Below, one piece after another: positions 4,104 through 57,555 of a stretch of 64,000 nt of DNA (position 1 is the first letter of the stretch; each line of letters begins with the position of its first letter). The notes beneath the pieces are model-generated. The model had not been told where the DNA came from. It ran no database searches and saw nothing but the letters and a program-made list of their open reading frames with translations. The DNA lies in contig CAIKXY010000004.1 of the NCBI GenBank assembly GCA_903831595.1, positions 96,552 to 160,551 on the forward strand, given 5' to 3'. The DNA is from an uncultured bacterium (GTDB lineage: Bacteria > Patescibacteriota > Minisyncoccia > Phycocordibacterales > GWA1-40-21). The position numbers and the translations under genes are program-made.

Positions 4104-5876
4104 TTATATAAATCCACTTACCTGCAAATCCCAAAGATTTTTGTACAAACCACTTTCTTTGTTTGATAATTCTTCATGTGTGCCATCTTCAACAATTAAT
4201 CCTTTTTCCATAGAAATTATTCTATCCATTTTTCTTATCGTCGAAAGTCTGTGAGCAATCACTATAGTTGTAGAATTTTCCATCAAATGTTTTAAGGCAT
4301 CTTGAATTAATGACTCAGAATATGAATCTAGACTCGATGTCGCTTCATCAAAAATAAGTATTGGTGCTTTTTTTAGGATTGCTCTTGCAATTGCGATTCT
4401 TTGTCTTTCGCCACCAGAAAGTTTAATTCCCCTTTCTCCAACATAGGTATCATATTTTAGTGGTAAACTTTCAATAAACTCATCACAATGAGCAAGTTTT
4501 GCAGCTATTTTTACTTCTTCGTCTGTTGCCTTTCTATTACCATAGCGAATGTTTTCAAGAAGAGTTCTGTGAAAGAGTACTGGGTCTTGTGGAACAAAAC
4601 TAATATTTTCTCTCAAACTATCTTGTGTGACTTTGCTAATGTCTTGACCATCAATATTTATTGTTCCCCCCGTAAGATTATAAAGCCTCATTATAAGTCT
4701 TACTATAGTAGTTTTACCAGCACCTGAATGTCCTACTATAGCAACTTTTTCTTTTGGTCTAATGGTAAGACTTAAATTATCTAATATTTTATTATCTTTA
4801 TTAAATTGAAATGAAACGTTATTAAAATCTATCTCACCATTTTTAACAATAAGAAGTTTTGCATTTGGTAAATCTTCAATTTCATATTTTGTTAATAAAA
4901 TATCTACCATTTCTTTTGAGTCAGCTATGCTTTGGTAAAAATTACGAATAGTTTTATTTAAACTCCATAACTGTTGTGATAGACCGATAATATAAGTTTG
5001 TCCAAGAACAAATGTCCCTAAACTAACCATGCCTACTTTCCAATATTTTATCGCAAAATAAAATACAAAAAATTCCACAATGGTAATAAGAAATACCTGT
5101 ACTACATCGGAAATATTTCCTAATCGCCAAGAGAATAAATATTTTTTTGCTTGGTCATTTGACACATTTTTAAAACCACTTGATTCATAAAAATGACCAG
5201 TAAAAAAAGAGATTGCATTATTATTTGTTATAGAATCTGATAAATAACCGGTTGTTAAGGAATCAGCTTCAGCAACTAATTTATCATATTTAAGTTTCCA
5301 AACTGAAAATATTATACTAAATATTACATAAAAAATAACCCATATCAATAATATAATCGCAAATACTGGTGCTATTAACCAAGTTACAATAATTGAACCG
5401 ACTACAGTTACCACCAGGGGCATAAAATTAAAAACTAAACCATCTATCATATTCTCAAAAGCTCGACTAAAACGTCCGACTTTTTGCACTAGACTTCCAC
5501 TAAAATTATTCGTAAAAAATGCGTGAGAGTGTTTAATTAAATAATCAAAAGAAATCTGTTTTAAACTTGCCATAATTTTAGAAACAGATGGTAAATAAAA
5601 ATATATAGCTATTTGCCAAAAAAATTGATCTACTAAATTAAAAATTAAAATTACAAAAATAATATGAAATAATATTGGTGCCGTTATATTTACATTAGTT
5701 GTTTTTCCTATGACATCAAAGAAATTCTTGTAAAAAAGAGGAACAATCACCATAATAATTCTTGATAGAAAGAAAAATAAAAAAGATAAAAATAATGCCA
5801 ACTTAAAATTTCCAATTCCACGCCAAAATTGGGTAAGTATTTCCAAAATAGTAGTTTCGTTTATTTTTTTGTTCAT
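4104..5876 (-). CDS. ABC transporter, fused permease/ATP-binding subunit (MsbA-like exporter)
   Basis: 6-TM N-terminal half; Walker A GHSGAGKTT, ABC signature LSGGERQRIAIARA, Walker B ILIFDEATSSLD. The track ORF begins at 5903; an internal ATG at 5876 is the more likely start. Confidence 0.85.
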   Translation of the reverse strand: MNKKINETTILEILTQFWRGIGNFKLALFLSFLFFFLSRIIMVIVPLFYKNFFDVIGKTTNVNITAPILFHIIFVILIFNLVDQFFWQIAIYFYLPSVSKIMASLKQISFDYLIKHSHAFFTNNFSGSLVQKVGRFSRAFENMIDGLVFNFMPLVVTVVGSIIVTWLIAPVFAIILLIWVIFYVIFSIIFSVWKLKYDKLVAEADSLTTGYLSDSITNNNAISFFTGHFYESSGFKNVSNDQAKKYLFSWRLGNISDVVQVFLITIVEFFVFYFAIKYWKVGMVSLGTFVLGQTYIIGLSQQLWSLNKTIRNFYQSIADSKEMVDILLTKYEIEDLPNAKLLIVKNGEIDFNNVSFQFNKDNKILDNLSLTIRPKEKVAIVGHSGAGKTTIVRLIMRLYNLTGGTINIDGQDISKVTQDSLRENISFVPQDPVLFHRTLLENIRYGNRKATDEEVKIAAKLAHCDEFIESLPLKYDTYVGERGIKLSGGERQRIAIARAILKKAPILIFDEATSSLDSYSESLIQDALKHLMENSTTIVIAHRLSTIRKMDRIISMEKGLIVEDGTHEELSNKESGLYKNLWDLQVSGFI

Positions 5877-6294: not shown

Positions 6295-7527
6295 TTATTC
6301 ATACCTTAGAGCTTCCATTGGGCTCTTTTTCGAAGCCTGGTTCGCTGGATATATACCAAAGACTAATCCGACCAATCCTGCAACCAAAACTCCCAATACT
6401 GCTGCACTCCATGGAAATACAAAGCTCCAATCAAGTTTAATAACCGATGTTAATATGATAGATATTACATAGGACAAAGTTGCTCCCAAAATAATTCCAA
6501 TAATACCACCAGACGCCGTAAGTATAACTGCTTCAAGTAAAAATTGAGTTAAAATATCTTTTCCGGTTGCCCCAATGGCTTTTCTCAAACCGATTTCTCG
6601 TGTTCTTTCAGTCACTGATACAAGCATGATATTCATAATTCCAATTCCTCCTACCACAAGAGAAATTGCGGCAACTGCAGCTAAAAATGCTGTGAGTGCA
6701 TTCGTTATTGTTGATAAAGTTGCAGCGACATCAGCCGAAGTTGTAACAGAAAAATCATCTTTCGTTGGGTCAGTAATGTTATGTGAGTTTCGTAAGGTAA
6801 TGGTCACATCTTGAACTGTTGATTTAAGATTTGCTTCTGAATCTGCTTCAACAACAATTCTATTATAATATTTTGTTCCAGTTATATATTGTTGAGCTGT
6901 TGTGTATGGCATGAAAACCGTATCATCAAAACTTGAAGAAGCCCCTTTTTCTGGTAATACTCCAATAACTTTAAAGGTATTATTTTTAATTCTTATTTTT
7001 TGACCTATTGGATCATCACCGTCAAAAAGATGTTGTTTAACTTTATAGCCAATTACAACTACAGATGACAAACTTTGTACATCTTGGTCAGAAAAAAATG
7101 TTCCCCTGTCAGGATTTAAACTAAAAATTTCTGGGACAAGTTCACCAGAACCGAAAACAGAAACTTGATAAACATTGCTTCCATAAACCGCTTTTCCGGC
7201 TCCGACAACCATTGGCATTACATATTTTGCATGAGGAACATTTGTTTTATTTTTTATTAATTTTAAATCTTTTTCTTTAAGAGAATCGTTCATCGTCTGC
7301 GATGCCATTGATGGACCAAAGGAAACTTTTCCGGGTAATGTGATAATCGTTGTTGCTCCTAGACCTTTTACTTGCCCAAGTATAAGATTTTGTGCGCCTT
7401 GTCCAAGTGACATAACCAATATAATTGAGGTGATACCAATAACAATACCTATTATCGTCAAAGCTGAGCGCGATTTGTGCGTTGTGAGTCCCGTTACTGC
7501 AGTTTTTATGCTATATCGTAATTTCAT
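6295..7527 (-). CDS. ABC transporter permease, MacB/FtsX family
   Basis: N-terminal TM helix, large periplasmic domain, C-terminal FtsX-like 3-TM bundle; placed with an ATPase and an HlyD adaptor. Confidence 0.8.
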   Translation of the reverse strand: MKLRYSIKTAVTGLTTHKSRSALTIIGIVIGITSIILVMSLGQGAQNLILGQVKGLGATTIITLPGKVSFGPSMASQTMNDSLKEKDLKLIKNKTNVPHAKYVMPMVVGAGKAVYGSNVYQVSVFGSGELVPEIFSLNPDRGTFFSDQDVQSLSSVVVIGYKVKQHLFDGDDPIGQKIRIKNNTFKVIGVLPEKGASSSFDDTVFMPYTTAQQYITGTKYYNRIVVEADSEANLKSTVQDVTITLRNSHNITDPTKDDFSVTTSADVAATLSTITNALTAFLAAVAAISLVVGGIGIMNIMLVSVTERTREIGLRKAIGATGKDILTQFLLEAVILTASGGIIGIILGATLSYVISIILTSVIKLDWSFVFPWSAAVLGVLVAGLVGLVFGIYPANQASKKSPMEALRYE

Positions 7528-8258: not shown

Positions 8259-9839
8259 TTATAAGTTTGGTGATGCCAATATTTTATCTCCTTCTTTTAA
8301 CCCAGAAATGATTTCAACGTAACCATCAACACCGCGCATACCAGCTTCTACTTTTGTTTCGGTTATTGTTTTTAAATCATCACCACTAAGTAATTTTACA
8401 TATTTCAAAATATCAACCGAGTAAACTGACCTTGTAGGGACAGCCAAAACATTGTCTTTTTGCCCAGTTAATATATCAAGATTTGCTGTCATACCAGATT
8501 TTATTCTTTCATCTGAAGAGGATGCAAATTTTAAAGTAACTTTGTATGTAGGAACATTTTCTATTACAGTTTCTGCAGGATCTATTTTTATAACTGAAGT
8601 TTCAAAAAAAGTACCTGAACCATAAGCATCAAGTGTAGTTGTTGCAATATCACCAATTTTTATTTTAGCAATGTCTGCTTCTGATATGTAAGATTCGACT
8701 TCATATTGTCCGTATGAAATTACAGATAATGCTGACATTCCAGCTTGTATGGTTTCCCCAACTTTTGCAACAATGTTTGTTATTACTCCGTTTATTGGTG
8801 AAGTTATTATGGATTTATTTAATCTTGCCTGAGCTGCATCAACACTTGCTTGTGCCTGCTCAACTGTAGCCTCTTGTGCTTGTAATTGATCCGCAGTTGC
8901 GCCAGTCTTTGTTAAGGTAAGTTGGCTGTTTGCAATATTCAATGCAGATATCGCTGATTGATATTGATTGTCAGTGGTTGATAAATTATTTATTACTAAT
9001 GCCATACTTGATCTTGACGTTGAAACATTTGTTCTCCAAAGAGTAATTGCCGTCTGGCTTATTGAAGAGTTTTGCATTAATTTATTTACGGCCAAAGCAA
9101 GGTTTTGTAATAATAATTGGATTGCAGAAAGGTAATTATTTGATAATAAGACTGCTTCATCAATATTTGAATTCATAGTCAAATCTAGAATTGAAGCACT
9201 CCAAGTTGTTAGAATATTTTCTACATTAGCTCTTTCCGAGACAATATCATTTTGCAACTGAAAATCAGTTTGAAATTGCAAAGACGGACTCATACTTCGA
9301 GGATTTGTGAACATTAAGTCAACATAATTCCTAATAGCATCATCTGATTTGTTATATGCGTCTTTTATAGAATTTATTAAAGTATTTTTTGCATCTGCTA
9401 AGTCATTTCGTGCTTTATCAACTTGAGACTGATTTATAGCTATTTGCTCCGGTGTTGCTCCATTTTGAAGAGATGACAAATTTGCTTCGGCAATTTTAAG
9501 CCCCGCTTTTGCTTGTTCCACTGCAGCAACTAAATCCGCATTCGAAAGTGAAGCAAGATACTGTCCTTGGTAAACTTTGTCCCCAACAGATACATAAACA
9601 TGAGATACTTGACCACCAGTTTCAAAAGAAAGATTTAAATCTGAAAGGGGTTTTACATTACCCGTTGAACTCACAACTTCTACTATATTGTGTCTTGCAA
9701 CAGAAACACTATCAGCAACAGTTGATTTTTTACCGCTAAATATAAGGACACATAAGATTATAACAACAACTACGATTAGCACAGTCCACCATTTATTTTT
9801 TTTAATAAAATTTAAAATGCCAAAAAATATTTTTTTCAT
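8259..9839 (-). CDS. HlyD-family periplasmic adaptor (membrane fusion protein) of a MacAB-like efflux system
   Basis: N-terminal TM anchor, long coiled-coil region and C-terminal beta-barrel-like region; first gene of a three-gene run with 4-5 nt spacings. Confidence 0.7.
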   Translation of the reverse strand: MKKIFFGILNFIKKNKWWTVLIVVVVIILCVLIFSGKKSTVADSVSVARHNIVEVVSSTGNVKPLSDLNLSFETGGQVSHVYVSVGDKVYQGQYLASLSNADLVAAVEQAKAGLKIAEANLSSLQNGATPEQIAINQSQVDKARNDLADAKNTLINSIKDAYNKSDDAIRNYVDLMFTNPRSMSPSLQFQTDFQLQNDIVSERANVENILTTWSASILDLTMNSNIDEAVLLSNNYLSAIQLLLQNLALAVNKLMQNSSISQTAITLWRTNVSTSRSSMALVINNLSTTDNQYQSAISALNIANSQLTLTKTGATADQLQAQEATVEQAQASVDAAQARLNKSIITSPINGVITNIVAKVGETIQAGMSALSVISYGQYEVESYISEADIAKIKIGDIATTTLDAYGSGTFFETSVIKIDPAETVIENVPTYKVTLKFASSSDERIKSGMTANLDILTGQKDNVLAVPTRSVYSVDILKYVKLLSGDDLKTITETKVEAGMRGVDGYVEIISGLKEGDKILASPNL

Positions 9840-9888
9840 ATATAAATATTATATCAGATTTTTACTGAATTTGAAATAAAAAAATTTG

Positions 9889-9962
9889 TGGACGATACTG
9901 GATTCGAACCAGTGGCCTTACGAATGTGAATCGTATGCTCTAACCAACTGAGCTAATCGTCC
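9889..9962 (-). tRNA. tRNA-Val (anticodon CAC)
   Basis: Reverse complement GGACGAT-TA-GCTC AGTTGGTTA GAGC-A-TACGA TTCACAT TCGTA-AGGCC-ACTGG TTCGAAT CCAGT-ATCGTCC-A folds as a 74-nt cloverleaf with a perfect 7-bp acceptor stem; no encoded CCA. Confidence 0.75.
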
Positions 9963-10009
9963 TTTATTTTTTATATCTTTTATAATATACTTTTTTTGTT
10001 AAAATTGAA

Positions 10010-10082
10010 GGGCCGCTAGCTCATTTGGTAGAGCGCATCCATGGCATGGATGAGGCGACCGGTTCGATCCCGGTGCGGTCCA
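10010..10082 (+). tRNA. tRNA-Ala (anticodon GGC)
   Basis: GGGCCGC-TA-GCTC ATTTGGTA GAGC-G-CATCC ATGGCAT GGATG-AGGCG-ACCGG TTCGATC CCGGT-GCGGTCC-A; G3:U70 Ala identity pair present. Confidence 0.75.
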
Positions 10083-10244
10083 CAGGCGTATAAAATATCT
10101 GCATTTATGCTGATATTTAGCCTGTGGAAAGCGTAGCGATGTTTTGTGAGAATTAACGAACAAAACCGCGAGCTGGGGTCGCGAACACTTACATATTTTT
10201 GAAACTTTTAAGATTCAAAAATATTTAGTGATTCGTGATACACA
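10083..10244 (+). repeat. tRNA-Ala-linked conserved element, copy 1. An 8-bp stem (10080-10087 / 10120-10127) encloses an inner hairpin; a 121-nt GC-enriched structured core follows at 10124-10244.
   Basis: 97.5% identical (3 substitutions in 121 nt) to 13764-13884. Internal hairpins include GTTTTG..CAAAAC, CGCGA-GCTGGGG-TCGCG and TTTGAA..TTCAAA. Confidence 0.7.
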
Positions 10245-19695: not shown

Positions 19696-20082
19696 TTATT
19701 TTTTTATTATTGCGTCTACTTCTTCAATAATTTCATCTGGAGATAAAATAGCTTTTACCAAGAATTTTTTTGCCCCAAGAGAGACGCCTTTTTCCACGTC
19801 ATTTTTCTGTCCTAAATTTGAAAGAATAACAACAGCTGTATCTTTTTTATCCTTATCGGCTCTAATGTTTTCTAAAACCTGAAAACCATCCATTTTAGGT
19901 AACATAATATCAAGTAACACTAAATCAAATTTTGGATTTTCTTTTATTTTATCAACCGCTTCTTGTCCATCAATGGCAAGCGTAACATCGGCCTTATTTT
20001 CAATAAGTTTTTTTGACATTAGTTTACTCAACAAAATGTCATCCTCTACCAACAATATTCTTTTTCCGGAAAAATCTGCCAT
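19696..20082 (-). CDS. stand-alone response-regulator receiver domain (CheY-like, no output domain)
   Basis: ILLVEDD..D..LLDIMLPKMDG..K signature motifs; 128 aa. Confidence 0.85.
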   Translation of the reverse strand: MADFSGKRILLVEDDILLSKLMSKKLIENKADVTLAIDGQEAVDKIKENPKFDLVLLDIMLPKMDGFQVLENIRADKDKKDTAVVILSNLGQKNDVEKGVSLGAKKFLVKAILSPDEIIEEVDAIIKK

Positions 20083-53667: not shown

Positions 53668-56331
53668 ATGGCAAAAAACAAAAAATACGTTTATGCATTT
53701 GAGGAAGGAAACAAGGATATGAAAGAAATCCTTGGAGGAAAAGGTGCGAACTTAGCAGAAATGAAAAATTTGGGAATCAATGTTCCCCCAGGTTTTACTA
53801 TCAGTACTGAAGCCTGTGCACTTTATTATGAAGTCGGCAAAAAAATAAATGCTGAAGTAAAAAAACAGACAGATATTAAACTTGCACAGCTTGAAAAGAA
53901 AATGGGAAAGAAGCTTGGAGATGCAAATGATCCCCTTCTAGTCTCCGTTCGCTCTGGTGCTTTCGCATCAATGCCTGGAATGATGGATACCATTTTGAAT
54001 CTTGGTTTAAATGACAAATCAGTTGTAGGACTTGCAAAAATCACAAACAATCCTCGCTTCGCGTGGGATTCATATAGAAGACTTATTCAGATGTTTGGAA
54101 ACGTTGTTATGGAAATGGGACATGGAGATTTTGAACACATTTTGGAATCTGTAAAAGATACAAAAGGTGCAAAATATGACACAGACCTTACAGCCGACGA
54201 TTTGAAAGAAATTGTTACAAAATACAAAGCAAAAATAAAAGCTGTCAAAGGAGTAGAATTTCCACAAGACCCTATCAAACAGATGTATTTGGCTATTAAC
54301 GCCGTTTTTAATTCTTGGAACAACTATCGCGCTATAAGATACAGAGAAATAAATAGCATCAAAGGACTTATCGGAACTGCTGTAAATATTCAAGCAATGG
54401 TCTTCGGAAATCTTGGAGATGATTCTGGAACAGGTGTATGCTTTACAAGAAATCCTTCAACAGGAGAAGCAAAATTCTACGGAGAATATTTGATGAACGC
54501 ACAAGGAGAAGATGTAGTCGCTGGTATCAGAACTCCCCTTTCTGTAGCAACATTGGCAAAAGCAAATCCAAAAATTTATAAAGAACTTGTCAGTATTTGT
54601 AATAAAGTTGAAAAACATTACAAAGATATGCAAGATATGGAATTTACAATTGAAAGAGGTGTGCTTTATATTCTTCAAGCAAGAAATGGTAAAAGAACTG
54701 CAGCCGCTTCTGTAAAAATCGCCGTTGACTTAGTAAAAGAAAAACTTATTTCACTCGAAACAGCACTTTTGAGAATTGACCCAAACCAATTAAACCAACT
54801 CCTACACAAACAGCTAGACCCAATCGCCGTTTCAAAAGCAAGAGTCATTGCACAAGGACTTCCAGCTTCTCCAGGAGCAGCTGTCGGAGAAGTAGTATTT
54901 ACTGCAGGTGAAGCGTTTGCAAAAGCGAAATCAGGTCTTGATGTAATTCTTGTTAGAACAGAAACATCACCAGAAGATATTGACGGTATGCACTCATCAA
55001 AAGGAATTTTGACAGCAAGAGGTGGTATGACAAGCCATGCTGCTGTGGTTGCACGAGGTATGGGAACATGCTGTGTGGCAGGTTGCGCAGATATTTCAAT
55101 CGATGAAAAAGCAAAGACACTTACAATAAAAAGCCAAGGGATTGTGATTAAAGAAGGAGAATTTATTTCTCTTGATGGTTCAACAGGAAAAGTTTATGAA
55201 GGAAAACTCGGAACGCAAGATGCATCATTGCTTGGAAACTTTGGAACTCTGATGAATTGGTCAGACAAATTTAGAAAAATTGGCGTGCGAACAAATGCAG
55301 ACACACCTCACGATGCACAAGTTGCTAGAAAATTTGGTGCAGAAGGTATTGGACTTTGCAGAACTGAACACATGTTTTTTGAAGGTGCTCGTATAAAAGC
55401 GGTTCGCGAAATGATACTTGCAGGCGATCTTGAAGCTAGAAAAAAAGCATTGGCAAAACTTTATCCATATCAGAAAGGAGATTTTGCTGGATTATTTGAA
55501 GCCATGGACGGTCTTGCAGTTACTATCAGACTATTAGATGCACCACTTCATGAATTCTTACCAAAAGAAAAGAAAGATATTGAGGAACTTTCAAAAGAAA
55601 TGAGAGTTGATGTAAAAACACTTGAAGCAAAGATTGAAGACCTACATGAATTCAATCCTATGCTTGGACACCGAGGTTGCAGACTTGCTATCACCTATCC
55701 TGAAATTTACGATATGCAAGCAATGGCAATCATTGATGCTGCAATTGAAGTAAAGAAAAACAAAAAAGCAAAGTCAGTCAAGCCAGAAATAATGATTCCT
55801 ATTGTTGCCACAACAAAAGAATTCTCAATCTTAAAAGATAGAATTGTAAAAATTGTTGAAGCAAAAATAAAAGAATCAAAAGTGAAAATTGAATATAAGA
55901 TCGGAACAATGATTGAAGTTCCACGTGCGGCTTTGATTGCAGATAAGATTGTAAATGCTGGTGCAGAGTTCTTCTCATTTGGAACAAACGATCTTACACA
56001 AATGGGAGCTGGACTTTCAAGAGATGATGCTGGTAAATTCTTAAAAGAATATGTTGCTCAAGATATTTTCGCTTATGATCCATTTGAAGTTTTGGACCAA
56101 GAAGGTATCGGCCAACTTATTAAAATCGCTATACAAAAAGGTAGGAGTATAAAGAAAGATTTGAAAGTTGGTATTTGTGGAGAACATGGTGGAGAGCCAA
56201 AAACAGTTGAATTCTGTCACAGGGAAGGATTAAATTATGTTTCTTGCTCACCATTTAGAGTACCAATCGCAAGACTCGCAGGAGCTCAAGCGGTAGTGAG
56301 AGAATTATTGAACAAAAAAGGAAAAAAATAA
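53668..56331 (+). CDS. ppdK: pyruvate, phosphate dikinase
   Basis: N-terminal EILGGKGANLAEM, catalytic His region GGMTSHAAVVARG, C-terminal PEP/pyruvate-binding domain; 887 aa. Confidence 0.95.
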   Translation: MAKNKKYVYAFEEGNKDMKEILGGKGANLAEMKNLGINVPPGFTISTEACALYYEVGKKINAEVKKQTDIKLAQLEKKMGKKLGDANDPLLVSVRSGAFASMPGMMDTILNLGLNDKSVVGLAKITNNPRFAWDSYRRLIQMFGNVVMEMGHGDFEHILESVKDTKGAKYDTDLTADDLKEIVTKYKAKIKAVKGVEFPQDPIKQMYLAINAVFNSWNNYRAIRYREINSIKGLIGTAVNIQAMVFGNLGDDSGTGVCFTRNPSTGEAKFYGEYLMNAQGEDVVAGIRTPLSVATLAKANPKIYKELVSICNKVEKHYKDMQDMEFTIERGVLYILQARNGKRTAAASVKIAVDLVKEKLISLETALLRIDPNQLNQLLHKQLDPIAVSKARVIAQGLPASPGAAVGEVVFTAGEAFAKAKSGLDVILVRTETSPEDIDGMHSSKGILTARGGMTSHAAVVARGMGTCCVAGCADISIDEKAKTLTIKSQGIVIKEGEFISLDGSTGKVYEGKLGTQDASLLGNFGTLMNWSDKFRKIGVRTNADTPHDAQVARKFGAEGIGLCRTEHMFFEGARIKAVREMILAGDLEARKKALAKLYPYQKGDFAGLFEAMDGLAVTIRLLDAPLHEFLPKEKKDIEELSKEMRVDVKTLEAKIEDLHEFNPMLGHRGCRLAITYPEIYDMQAMAIIDAAIEVKKNKKAKSVKPEIMIPIVATTKEFSILKDRIVKIVEAKIKESKVKIEYKIGTMIEVPRAALIADKIVNAGAEFFSFGTNDLTQMGAGLSRDDAGKFLKEYVAQDIFAYDPFEVLDQEGIGQLIKIAIQKGRSIKKDLKVGICGEHGGEPKTVEFCHREGLNYVSCSPFRVPIARLAGAQAVVRELLNKKGKK

Positions 56332-56337
56332 ATTAGA

Positions 56338-56376
56338 AAAAAAGAGCGGCGCCATAGGCGCCGCTCTTTTATTTTA
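56338..56376. terminator. bidirectional terminator (GAGCGGCGCC-ATAG-GGCGCCGCTC) between convergent ppdK and ackA
   Basis: 10-bp GC stem with A/T tracts on both sides. Confidence 0.75.
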
Positions 56377-57555
56377 TTATACCTTTTGCATATCTTTAGC
56401 CATCTGATTTATCTCATCAGTACAAACTACCAATACTTTTACTGGAGAGAAAAATGAACTTATTTTTCTATCAACACTTACTGTTTTATTGTTTTTCTTT
56501 TTACTGAGTTTGATACCAAGATATTCTAAATCTTTACAAATTCTTTCTCTCATAATAAATGACCTCTCACCTATCGTGCCTGAAAATACCAAAGTATCGA
56601 TTCCTCCCATTTCTGCAACGTAAGCACCAATATATTTTTTAATACTCATCACAAATTTTTCCAATGCCAATTCAGCGTCTTTGTCGCCCTTTGATTCAAG
56701 GACTAACAAATCACGAACGTCAGAGCTTTTGCCACCAGACAACCCTAGAAGACCACATTCATTATTGAAATATGCCTCAAGTTCAGTGATATCTTTGCCC
56801 AATTTCTGTCCTAGATACATAACAGCGACTGGGTCAATATCTCCAACTCTTGTAGACATGACAAGACCCTGTAGTGGTGTATAACCCATTGAAGTATCAA
56901 AACTTTTGCCATCCTTCAGGGCTACAACACTTAGTCCTCCACCGAGGTGACAAATTATAATTTTTTCAGAAATTTTGCCATTATTTTTCAATTTATTAAC
57001 AATGGATTTTACGGAAATTCCATGATAACCAAAATGATAAATGTCTAATTCTTTTGCAACATTTTTTGGAATAGCATAATTCTTTGCAAAATCAGGAATA
57101 TTTTTATGAAATGAACTATCTGAAATACCAACAATCTGAGTATTAGGAAATATTTTCTTTATTTCTTTTATTTCTTTCAGCGTGGTTGGAACATGGCGCG
57201 GAGCTTCTTCCTTTTCTTCCGTAATTTTCTCAACAAACCCTTCGTCAATAATTCTGTTTGACTGAAAATATGTCCCTGGAGAAACTATTCTTATGCTTAT
57301 TGAAGAAATATCTTCTTTACTTTCAATAATTTTATTATTTATTGCTTCTTGAATAAAATAATCCAAAGAATTATTAAATATCTCGTCATCTATTTTTATT
57401 GTTGTTGGTTTATTTTTGTTACCATCTGAATAAAAAGTTACGATTGCTTTACCAGTCTCTATTTCAAAATGACCAAAAAATAATTCTGATTTTTCATCAT
57501 AAATTGCGTATTTTGCCGAAACTGAACCTGTATTTACAATTAAATATTTTTTCAT
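56377..57555 (-). CDS. ackA: acetate kinase
   Basis: N-terminal LVNTGSVSAKYAIYD and HLGGGLSV motifs; 392 aa. Confidence 0.9.
   Translation of the reverse strand: MKKYLIVNTGSVSAKYAIYDEKSELFFGHFEIETGKAIVTFYSDGNKNKPTTIKIDDEIFNNSLDYFIQEAINNKIIESKEDISSISIRIVSPGTYFQSNRIIDEGFVEKITEEKEEAPRHVPTTLKEIKEIKKIFPNTQIVGISDSSFHKNIPDFAKNYAIPKNVAKELDIYHFGYHGISVKSIVNKLKNNGKISEKIIICHLGGGLSVVALKDGKSFDTSMGYTPLQGLVMSTRVGDIDPVAVMYLGQKLGKDITELEAYFNNECGLLGLSGGKSSDVRDLLVLESKGDKDAELALEKFVMSIKKYIGAYVAEMGGIDTLVFSGTIGERSFIMRERICKDLEYLGIKLSKKKNNKTVSVDRKISSFFSPVKVLVVCTDEINQMAKDMQKV

Follow-up and report, generated by a model that had tools for sequence, protein, structure and literature searches.

An uncatalogued family of predicted structured RNA modules in the tRNA operons of Paceibacteria-like Patescibacteria

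Here we describe a structured module that lies directly behind two alanine transfer RNA (tRNA) genes in a stretch of 64,000 nucleotides (nt) of DNA from an uncultured member of the Patescibacteria (GCA_903831595.1, contig CAIKXY010000004.1, 96,552 to 160,551 of the forward strand). This whole stretch is called the window below, and window positions are used unless a locus is named. We propose, with moderate confidence, that this and related modules are uncatalogued structured RNAs that are transcribed as the 3' trailer of a tRNA, or as the spacer between two tRNAs, in the tRNA operons of Paceibacteria-like Patescibacteria and that are excised by the enzymes of tRNA processing. No catalogue lists the module, and the family is restricted to this clade, where it is found in tRNA operons.

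Results

A duplicated module behind two alanine tRNA genes

A repeat search of the window returned a direct repeat at 10010-10244 and 13650-13884. As claimed in an original prediction made from this DNA, the two copies have the same length (235 nt); they align without gaps and in register and are 3640 nt apart. Overall identity is 203/235. The tRNA genes, which are called with the predicted anticodons GGC (copy 1) and UGC (copy 2), have diverged as described, but the measured identity is 55/73 (75%) and not the ~72% first given. The spacer and hairpin between tRNA and core (41 nt) match at 30 positions. The core matches at 118 of its 121 nt, in agreement with the predicted 97.5%, and the three substitutions (copy 1/copy 2) are 10134 T/C, 10138 G/A, and 10204 A/C. 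A 121-nt repeat at this level of identity cannot be due to chance. Both copies sit at the ends of transcription units, and a third gene, Ala(CGC) at 10808-10878, carries no module. The parts of each copy are listed in Table 1.

The core is non-coding, as had been stated: its sole ATG reads MFCEN followed by a stop. The coding potential of the module as a whole was also rejected, the only open reading frames (ORFs) being spurious, running through the tRNA, and not conserved. The reported GC enrichment of the core is marginal, at 37-38% compared with a window mean of 32.5% (standard deviation 5.9%, 121-nt windows). A search of the window against Rfam 15 returned four tRNAs only, and no credible match to the module was obtained at thresholds up to E<=10.

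Table 1. Positions of the tRNA genes, the parts of the two module copies, and related units in other loci (L numbers denote collected loci; positions in those rows are positions in the locus).
Feature	Position	Strand	Remarks
tRNA-Ala(GGC)	10010-10082	+	CCA not encoded; acceptor 3' strand 10075-10081, discriminator A10082; ARAGORN; Rfam tRNA 55.2 bits
P1 hairpin, copy 1	10080-10127	+	Outer stem CCACAGGC/GCCTGTGG from tRNA nt 71-73; inner hairpin 10093-10118; RNAfold 18 pairs, -20.7 kcal/mol
Core RNA (predicted), copy 1	10124-10244	+	Minimum free energy -37.7 kcal/mol, z = -5.4; covariance model R1 100.5 bits, E 2.5e-22; covariation
P0, copy 1	10124-10126/10241-10243	+	Weak, 3 bp
P2a, copy 1	10130-10132/10172-10174	+	
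Internal loop, copy 1	10133-10135 facing 10170-10171	+	GUA facing GA
P2b, copy 1	10136-10138/10167-10169	+	
AU bulge, copy 1	10139-10140	+	
P2c, copy 1	10141-10147/10160-10166	+	
Junction, copy 1	10175-10177	+	GGG
P3 base, copy 1	10178-10185/10232-10239	+	
P3 middle, copy 1	10186-10189/10227-10230	+	
P3 tip, copy 1	10193-10224	+	Variable
Possible decayed copy of tRNA-Ala(GGC) 3' end	10257-10265	+	Weak; TACGCAGTA vs TGCGGTCCA; by eye only
tRNA-Ala(UGC)	13650-13722	+	CCA not encoded; ARAGORN; Rfam tRNA 64.3 bits
P1 hairpin, copy 2	13720-13767	+	Outer stem CCACAAGC/GCTTGTGG; inner hairpin AAAATCCGCA-CTTT-TGCGGATTTT; 19 pairs, -24.3 kcal/mol
Core RNA (predicted), copy 2	13764-13884	+	Copy 1 helices shifted +3640; R1 96.5 bits
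Possible degenerate direct copy of tRNA-Ala(UGC) 3' end	13892-13905	+	GGCTGAAAGTCCAC vs CCGCTCAGGTCCAC; seen in sequence; suggestive only
Other-cargo units (Y, Z, W)	L025 8332-8474; L007 9174-9310; L021 ~9520-9660; L011 9793-9946; L016 9790-9945; L037 1318-1484; L047 ~5480-5670		

Predicted fold and covariation of the core

Covariation was counted in 23 sequences aligned by fitting them to the covariance model; a MAFFT alignment, which misplaced the long against the short forms, was set aside. In the fitted alignment 93.0% of cells are paired, compared with 74.6% in shuffles and 31-42% in slid controls. Fifteen of the 20 pairs change on both sides and 0/500 shuffles attain the observed values. 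The helices supported by this are P2a, P2b, the P2c hairpin, and the base of P3 (GGUCGCGAA/UUCGUGAYC). Switches of pair type in P2 are also visible in the raw sequences, independent of the fitted alignment; P2a is AGC/GCU here and GGC/GCC, GAC/GUC, or GCC/GGC in other copies. The GNA/GA internal loop, the AU bulge, and the NNG junction are conserved and unpaired. The P3 tip varies, with long forms in the window, L005, L006, L018, L007-Val, and L037 and short forms in the others. The G-to-A change at 13778 of copy 2 turns one P2b pair into A·C. As modeled, the core is two branched hairpins (P2 and P3) with conserved G·U pairs. The conserved loop and the G·U helix look like a candidate binding site for a protein or other ligand.

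Among the three hairpins first proposed in the core, GTTTTG..CAAAAC corresponds to P2c and TTTGAA..TTCAAA to the P3 tip. The third (CGCGA-GCTGGGG-TCGCG) was rejected; in the 23-sequence alignment its bases pair elsewhere, in P2a, P2b, and the P3 base, and it cannot form in several copies. Loops of the GCGAAGC / GAGCGAAGCGAG type recur at the tips of module hairpins in L011, L026, L025, and L037 and also in the rtT unit of Escherichia coli that is discussed below. The oligomer d(GCGAAGC) forms a mini-hairpin of very high stability.

At one P3 pair, G·U is present in 16/23 copies, and copy 1 folds better as the + strand (-37.7 kcal/mol) than as the - strand (-28.9 kcal/mol). On the basis of the conserved G·U pair and the better + strand folding, we place the RNA on the tRNA strand. 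The repeat could instead be a DNA-level or opposite-strand feature, either an operator or promoter region or a small RNA or terminator (TCGCGACCCCAGCTCGCGG+TTTTGTTCGT) on the - strand. We consider this very improbable. Terminator-like sites are called on the - strand at 10184-10166 and 13824-13806, and the P3 tip is palindromic, but other copies do not retain the hairpin (for example, CCGAGCCGGGGTCGCGAG of L007_Val cannot form it) and the minus-strand terminator was rejected on these comparative grounds. In addition, the conserved G·U pairs would read C·A on the - strand and the downstream genes are different at every site.

A long hairpin anchored in the tRNA 3' end

Hairpin P1 lies between tRNA and core. 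The 8-bp outer stem that was said to use the tRNA 3' end is present in both window copies, together with its compensatory change (G10085-C10122 compared with A13725-T13762). The inner hairpins differ in sequence yet fold, also as predicted, and they do so in register and with one further compensatory pair. The inner hairpin of copy 2 matches that found at the same tRNA in L007.

We folded 18 such hairpins. In the copies that have the core directly behind the tRNA (14/18), P1 begins at tRNA nt 71 and has 17-23 pairs; the hairpins of L048 and L016 have 12-14. Together the 18 hairpins contain 341 Watson-Crick pairs and only 5 G·U pairs. The sequence of P1 differs greatly from copy to copy, and the end of the stem covaries with the last bases of the tRNA (CCAC/GTGG, TCAC/GTGA with tRNA-Glu, and GCAC/GTGC in L022). 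Among the 114 tRNAs of the fetched loci, long hairpins anchored in the tRNA end are nearly confined to tRNAs that have a module or a related unit.

The modeled geometry of P1, about two turns of near-perfect duplex, would fit an RNase III stem. As an intrinsic terminator, P1 is not called by a + strand scan, its U-run lies inside the stem, and the downstream tRNAs of L011 and L020 need read-through. From its sequence P1 may be a leaky or partial terminator, an RNase III site, or both. Near-perfect palindromes extended by A/T, with arms of 31-40 nt, also stand at gene ends elsewhere in the window (19640-19701, 56314-56396, and 62362-62428). Such palindromes appear to be the usual style of bidirectional terminator in this genome, which bears on how P1 is read.

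Modules follow several tRNAs in related genomes

Judged by its neighboring proteins, the window belongs to a Patescibacteria genome of the Paceibacteria/Minisyncoccia type from a lake metagenome. Scanning metagenomes with a 20-mer from the core gave L005 and L006, which are groundwater metagenome contigs, plus a chance match (L004) in GC-rich coding DNA. Syntenic loci were collected via the adjacent HlyD-like gene, and a covariance model, R1, was searched over 84 sources (1.35 Mb total). This gave 22 good matches in ~15 related Paceibacteria/Minisyncoccia genomes, so the core is not absent from relatives, and 22/22 are on the tRNA strand. One further match, in L065 (16.5 bits, E 0.77), was taken as false. 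Some additional relatives had no tRNA cluster at the corresponding place. Half of the matches (11/22) begin at the annotated 3' end of a tRNA, which is Ala-GGC, Ala-CGC, Ala-UGC, Val-CAC, or Glu-CUC. The remaining matches follow partial tRNA copies, including one of tRNA-His (GUG) in L037. The L005 core is behind tRNA-Glu(CUC) and the L006 core behind a tRNA end, ...CGGTCCA. In P1-type copies the nhmmer match begins 3 nt ahead of the tRNA end. The original prediction of a non-coding RNA co-transcribed with tRNA-Ala is therefore borne out for the link to a tRNA and to its strand, whereas the link to tRNA-Ala in particular is not, since copies are also found behind Val, Glu, and His tRNAs.

When the modules were searched against the Rfam 15 covariance models (window and relatives; gathering thresholds, E<=10, and E<=1), the results were only tRNAs and chance matches to long-hairpin microRNA models. 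There was no match to riboswitches, ribozymes, 5S ribosomal RNA (rRNA), signal recognition particle (SRP) RNA, 6S RNA, Y RNA, or the group I intron. Judged by Rfam and by motifs compared by eye, 5S rRNA, SRP RNA, 6S RNA, RNase P RNA, Y RNA, and hammerhead or other ribozymes were rejected as candidates, as were K-turn and sarcin-ricin motifs for the GNA/GA loop. The element is absent from Rfam 15, in line with the first suggestion that it is undescribed; its known architectural analogue is the tyrT/rtT repeat of E. coli.

The position of the modules suggests how they are expressed. In L011, L016, L018, L020, and L031 two tRNA genes are separated by the module, which ends 7-26 nt before the next tRNA. 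L011 and L020 have the order tRNA - module - tRNA (- module - tRNA), with 7-10 nt from module to next tRNA. A sequence scan of these two loci found a sole promoter-like site, upstream of the first tRNA, and called no terminator-like site, so the downstream tRNAs are probably transcribed through the module. Judging from the gene order, co-transcription of the module with its tRNA would be the natural reading.

A location between tRNAs of one operon is also expected of a purely cis-acting spacer. Here P1 and core would act as a leaky terminator or attenuator and as a platform for processing that sets the relative output of the downstream tRNA or helps tRNA 3'-end maturation, with no RNA acting elsewhere. 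The downstream Ala-CGC and Pro-CGG tRNAs presumably read codons that are rare in an AT-rich genome, P1 resembles the palindromic terminators of the genome, and GUGG, which pairs with either the tRNA end or the core 3' end, could be a folding switch. However, a terminator or a cleavage site could do without a junction of 100 nt whose loops are invariant and whose helices covary, and within these clusters there are also tRNAs separated by 0-17 nt with no module. The core is also found at transcription-unit ends, as in both window copies, and in tRNA-like scaffolds that have no downstream tRNA. We therefore regard a purely cis-acting role as decidedly unlikely.

The identity of the host tRNAs bears on a second alternative, raised in the original prediction, that the module is a relic of an rRNA operon spacer (internal transcribed spacer, ITS) or 23S leader, duplicated together with tRNA-Ala. 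This was not upheld and is extremely improbable. There is no rRNA gene in the window and no rRNA signature in >100 fetched loci, a set that contained no rRNA operon of the clade. Although tRNA-Ala(UGC) is classically an ITS tRNA and the length of P1 fits an RNase III processing stem, most host tRNAs are not ITS tRNAs, with copies behind Ala(GGC), Ala(CGC), Val(CAC), Glu(CUC), and His(GUG). At the Ala(UGC) site itself a core is found only in the window/L007 lineage; L009, L011, L016, and L031 have no core there.

Fuller units in relatives carry a predicted tRNA-like scaffold

In relatives, fuller units have the order tRNA, P1, antisense acceptor 3' strand, X hairpin, T-stem 5' strand, reverse complement of the T-loop, cargo, and direct copy of the tRNA 3' end. 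The antisense stretch is 8-17 nt long, and its acceptor arm is exact in L025 and L048 and has one wobble or mismatch in L009, L011, L037-Leu, and L047. The arm of L025 (GTGGACCGC) gives A3-U70 where tRNA-Ala has G3·U70, the identity pair for alanyl-tRNA synthetase (AlaRS). The X hairpin is conserved (AGCAAGC...GCUUGCG, frequently with a CUGC loop) and the reverse complement of the T-loop is AAUCGAA, or AUUUGAA for tRNA-Pro. The terminal direct copy consists of the 3' part of the T-loop, the T-stem 3' strand, and the acceptor 3' strand, and is clear, at 12-55 nt, in L006, L007, L009, L011, L025, L037, and L048. Direct repeats of the tRNA 3' end are present 76-184 nt downstream of 10/114 tRNAs, and L037 has tandem units at tRNA-His. 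The fuller units (L025, L048, L009, L011, L037, and L047) are predicted to fold as tRNA-like stems capped by the cargo.

There are at least four types of cargo: C, which is the window core; Y (L025, L007, L021, and L006); Z (L011 and L016 at Pro, L037 at Leu); and W (L047 at Asn). Units with this same scaffold are found behind Ala, Pro, Leu, His, and Asn tRNAs. The Y, Z, and W units had no Rfam match in the regions scanned.

What remains of the scaffold in the window is GUGG (10124-10127 and 13764-13767), CAC (10241-10243), and two weak remnants of the tRNA end (10257-10265 and 13892-13905). The tRNA-like helices left are P0 (3 bp) and the P3 base, GGUC.../...GAUAC. At the position matching 10257-10265, L006 has TGCGGAGCA (7/9 to the tRNA end) followed by a clear second copy, CCCCGGTGCGGTCCAC. 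L007 carries AGGCTGATAGTTCAC, which is related to the remnant at 13892-13905.

Copies of tRNA halves were also observed. At ~6980-7520 (-) of L009, two 5' halves and two 3' halves of tRNA-Pro surround an intact tRNA-Pro(CGG). The split falls exactly at anticodon-loop position 35/36, between TTCG and GGA, and the flanking sequences CCCGAACAAACTTTT and AAAAGTTTGAACGGG form an inverted repeat. The combination of AACGGGCAAG and a tRNA 3' half stands behind tRNA-Val in three genomes (L009 ~9440-9500, L011 ~8990-9057, and L022 ~2415-2466). Group I introns are reported in Patescibacteria tRNAs at this same site, position 35/36 (PMC13011429), but the intervening DNA holds a whole tRNA and has no intron match. 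The module itself was rejected as a group I intron, as its position differs and it has no Rfam intron match.

Duplication and probable overwriting of copies among tRNA genes

In L007 the neighboring protein has 88% amino-acid (aa) identity to that of the window, and the tRNA-Ala(UGC) and tRNA-Ala(GGC) genes are identical to those of the window. The L007 core at Ala(UGC) is 60% identical to the window core and 88% identical to the L011 Ala(CGC) core. L007 has a core behind tRNA-Val, where the window has none, and its Ala(GGC) site keeps the hairpin and lacks the core. Because the tRNAs of L007 are identical yet its same-site core is only 60% identical, we attribute the similarity of the window pair to recent gene conversion or duplication and not to exceptional constraint. 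The window-type core is otherwise found behind Ala(GGC) in L018 and L021 and, in L006, behind an incomplete tRNA end matching Ala(GGC). These sequences are most economically explained by a recent event in which the Ala(GGC) copy overwrote the one at Ala(UGC). Selection on both RNA structure and core sequence had been put forward; compensatory changes in relatives support the former, but the 60% identity at the same site in L007 does not support unusual constraint on the latter.

Turnover of this kind would also be seen if the modules were selfish duplicative cassettes, that is, small non-autonomous elements or leftovers of integrative elements that integrate into, or recombine at, the 3' ends of tRNA genes, duplicate the tRNA end as att sites do, and make an RNA with no host role. 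Consistent with this are the direct repeats of the tRNA 3' end and the tandem units described above, presence/absence turnover in close relatives, an inversion that ends at tRNA genes, the hybrid nature of the L007 Ala(UGC) copy, the several unrelated cargos that share one scaffold, and the nearly all Watson-Crick P1 palindromes. By contrast, no integrase or transposase was found beside any copy, either in the gene tables of the loci or with Pfam, and the units are only 100-250 nt long. Pfam gave nothing recombinase- or RNA-related for the neighboring unknown ORFs (164 aa, 295 aa, 97 aa, and 141 aa). The module had no BLAST match in phage and plasmid collections, and in viral contigs exact and degenerate core patterns and the X hairpin gave zero, or 19 chance matches that failed the model. 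The same core at six tRNA identities would need either a separate attP for each or a target-copying mechanism. Furthermore, orientation to the tRNA is fixed, and DNA mobility leaves the strand-specific RNA covariation with conserved G·U pairs unexplained. A selfish cassette without host role is thus unlikely. The strand and tRNA linkage of the 22 copies in the sources searched, each beside a tRNA or tRNA fragment, together with the lack of a nearby transposase and of phage or plasmid matches, also speaks against the repeat of an insertion sequence or miniature inverted-repeat transposable element, the possibility named in the original prediction.

Compared with L007 (6990-9961), the window (9888-13723) has the tRNA-Val(CAC) to tRNA-Ala(CGC) segment in inverted orientation, with breakpoints at tRNA 3' ends. 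The window has an extra 295-aa ORF at 10929-11816 (-), beside tRNA-Ala(CGC), that is Cys-rich with CxxC motifs and belongs to no Pfam family. Directly 3' of module copy 1 is a 164-aa ORF (10290-10784, +), which is kept at the same place in L007 and has only a sub-threshold match to DUF6886 (E 0.012). A perfect extended -10 box, TGTTATAAT, is found ~9 nt before its ATG, a position that suggests a leaderless mRNA.

Discussion

The observation behind the original prediction was confirmed and its interpretation was partly supported. We propose the following model for structured RNA modules in tRNA operons. The module begins inside the tRNA, where the near-perfect 17-23-bp P1 pairs tRNA nt 71-73 and the first trailer base with GUGG. 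Next comes the core of ~95-120 nt with its two branched hairpins, P2 with the GNA/GA loop and AU bulge and P3 with fixed G·U pairs at its base, closed by the short helix P0 (GUGG.../...CAC). RNA polymerase from the tRNA promoter would read on into the module. Enzymes of tRNA maturation would then excise it: RNase Z would cleave at the 3' end of the tRNA, which lacks CCA, RNase P would cleave at either the following tRNA or the module's own tRNA-like end, and P1 might be a target of RNase III. With its pairing to the tRNA end released, GUGG could close the core as P0. In relatives the core appears to sit inside a complete tRNA-like scaffold with the layout of the E. coli tyrT-rtT units. Duplication and gene conversion spread copies among the tRNA genes and homogenize them, and this accounts for the 97.5% identity of the two window cores.

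Several points weigh against this model. What the model says on co-transcription, on where cleavage takes place, and on how stable a discrete RNA would be is deduced from sequence, and the covariation was counted on a model-fitted alignment, which favors structure. The window P0 has only 3 bp and the tRNA-like scaffold of the window copies has shrunk to 3-4 nt. P1 is nearly free of G·U pairs and resembles the ordinary long palindromic terminators of this genome; it could be a DNA-level feature or a terminator instead of an RNase III site. Spacers with no module join tRNAs in the same clusters (17 nt in L020 and 0 nt in L024), so the module is not needed for tRNA processing. Lastly, the presence of the module is patchy even among close relatives, as expected of an accessory or selfish element.

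A more tentative and wider possibility is that the window modules are reduced forms of what could be called tRNA-end-templated RNA cassettes, widespread in Patescibacteria. In such a cassette the 3' end of the host tRNA would be copied, antisense and sense, into a tRNA-like scaffold in which a structured cargo (C, Y, Z, or W) replaces the T-loop. The E. coli rtT would then be a lone representative of this principle, spread would occur by an undescribed form of target copying, and the C core might act elsewhere with a partner of its own. If true, this would be a general way of attaching small structured RNAs to the transcription and processing of tRNAs.

Although the genomes of Patescibacteria are tiny, members of this clade retain, duplicate, and rearrange an RNA of 100-160 nt with a predicted fold behind several of their tRNA genes. 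Should this RNA prove to be released and functional, it would be a new structured RNA family in a phylum with almost no known non-coding RNAs, and a natural "tRNA scaffold" for the expression of an RNA. For annotation, the modules account for partial tRNA copies and long palindromes around tRNA clusters, and a covariance model is available to mark them.

Comparison with known systems

The direct repeats of tRNA 3' segments that start in the T-loop and flank an insert in relatives resemble the att repeats of integrases. Unlike integrase elements, the inserts here are only 100-250 nt long, no recombinase gene was found in any of the loci, an inverted copy is also present, covariation is at the RNA level, and six tRNA identities are involved.

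Some spacer RNAs of tRNA precursors act as small RNAs; in E. coli, 3'ETS-leuZ and the metZ-metW ITS have been defined by experiment as sponges that are short, have little structure, and work by base pairing. The modules would share with them an origin as RNA by-products of the transcription and processing of tRNA operons. They differ in being a covarying junction of 100-120 nt that is known here from sequence.

Plant mitochondrial t-elements, the mascRNA of MALAT1, and the tRNA-like domain of the bacterial Y RNA YrlA are tRNA-like processing elements. In the predicted fold of the fuller relatives there is likewise a mimic of the acceptor and T-stem, through which RNase P, RNase Z, or the CCA-adding enzyme might be brought in to set the ends of the RNA. 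In contrast to those elements, the mimic is made of exact sense and antisense copies of the neighboring tRNA 3' end, the cargo takes the place of the T-loop, and, as distinct from YrlA, the modules have no Rfam match to Y RNA or related families.

The closest architecture is that of tyrT/rtT (rttR, RF00391). In E. coli K-12 (NC_000913.3 1286600-1287330, tyrT-tyrV-rttR) there are three 178-bp units, and the last 19 nt of each are those of the tRNA-Tyr 3' end. Within every unit there is an antisense copy, GGGGAAGGAT, of the terminal tRNA-Tyr 3' segment, ATCCTTCCCC, and the predicted pairing of these would close a structured middle. Bösl and Kersten, whose work is cited in PMC3318445, are said to have described rtT in 1991; it is reportedly released from the tyrT transcript by processing, its role has reportedly been unclear since, and a link with stress has been suggested. 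There is no homology between the two systems, as RF00391 misses the modules (gathering, E<=10, and E<=1) and R1 misses the tyrT locus. The window also differs from tyrT/rtT in that its copy of the tRNA end is only 3-4 nt, there is no Tpr-like ORF, and CCA is not encoded, and the Patescibacteria units add a tRNA-anchored P1 and the X hairpin. In both systems, however, the unit lies directly 3' of a tRNA gene on the same strand, which holds for both window copies and for P1-type copies elsewhere. Both contain an internal stretch that is antisense to the tRNA 3' end (GUGG in the window). Units of the relatives, like those of E. coli, end in a clear copy of the tRNA 3' end; in the window, CAC and two degenerate stretches may be what is left of such a copy. 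Tandem units are possible in both, as in L037 His. The Patescibacteria units thus provide a comparative handle on why tRNA operons gather mimics of the tRNA 3' end such as rtT.

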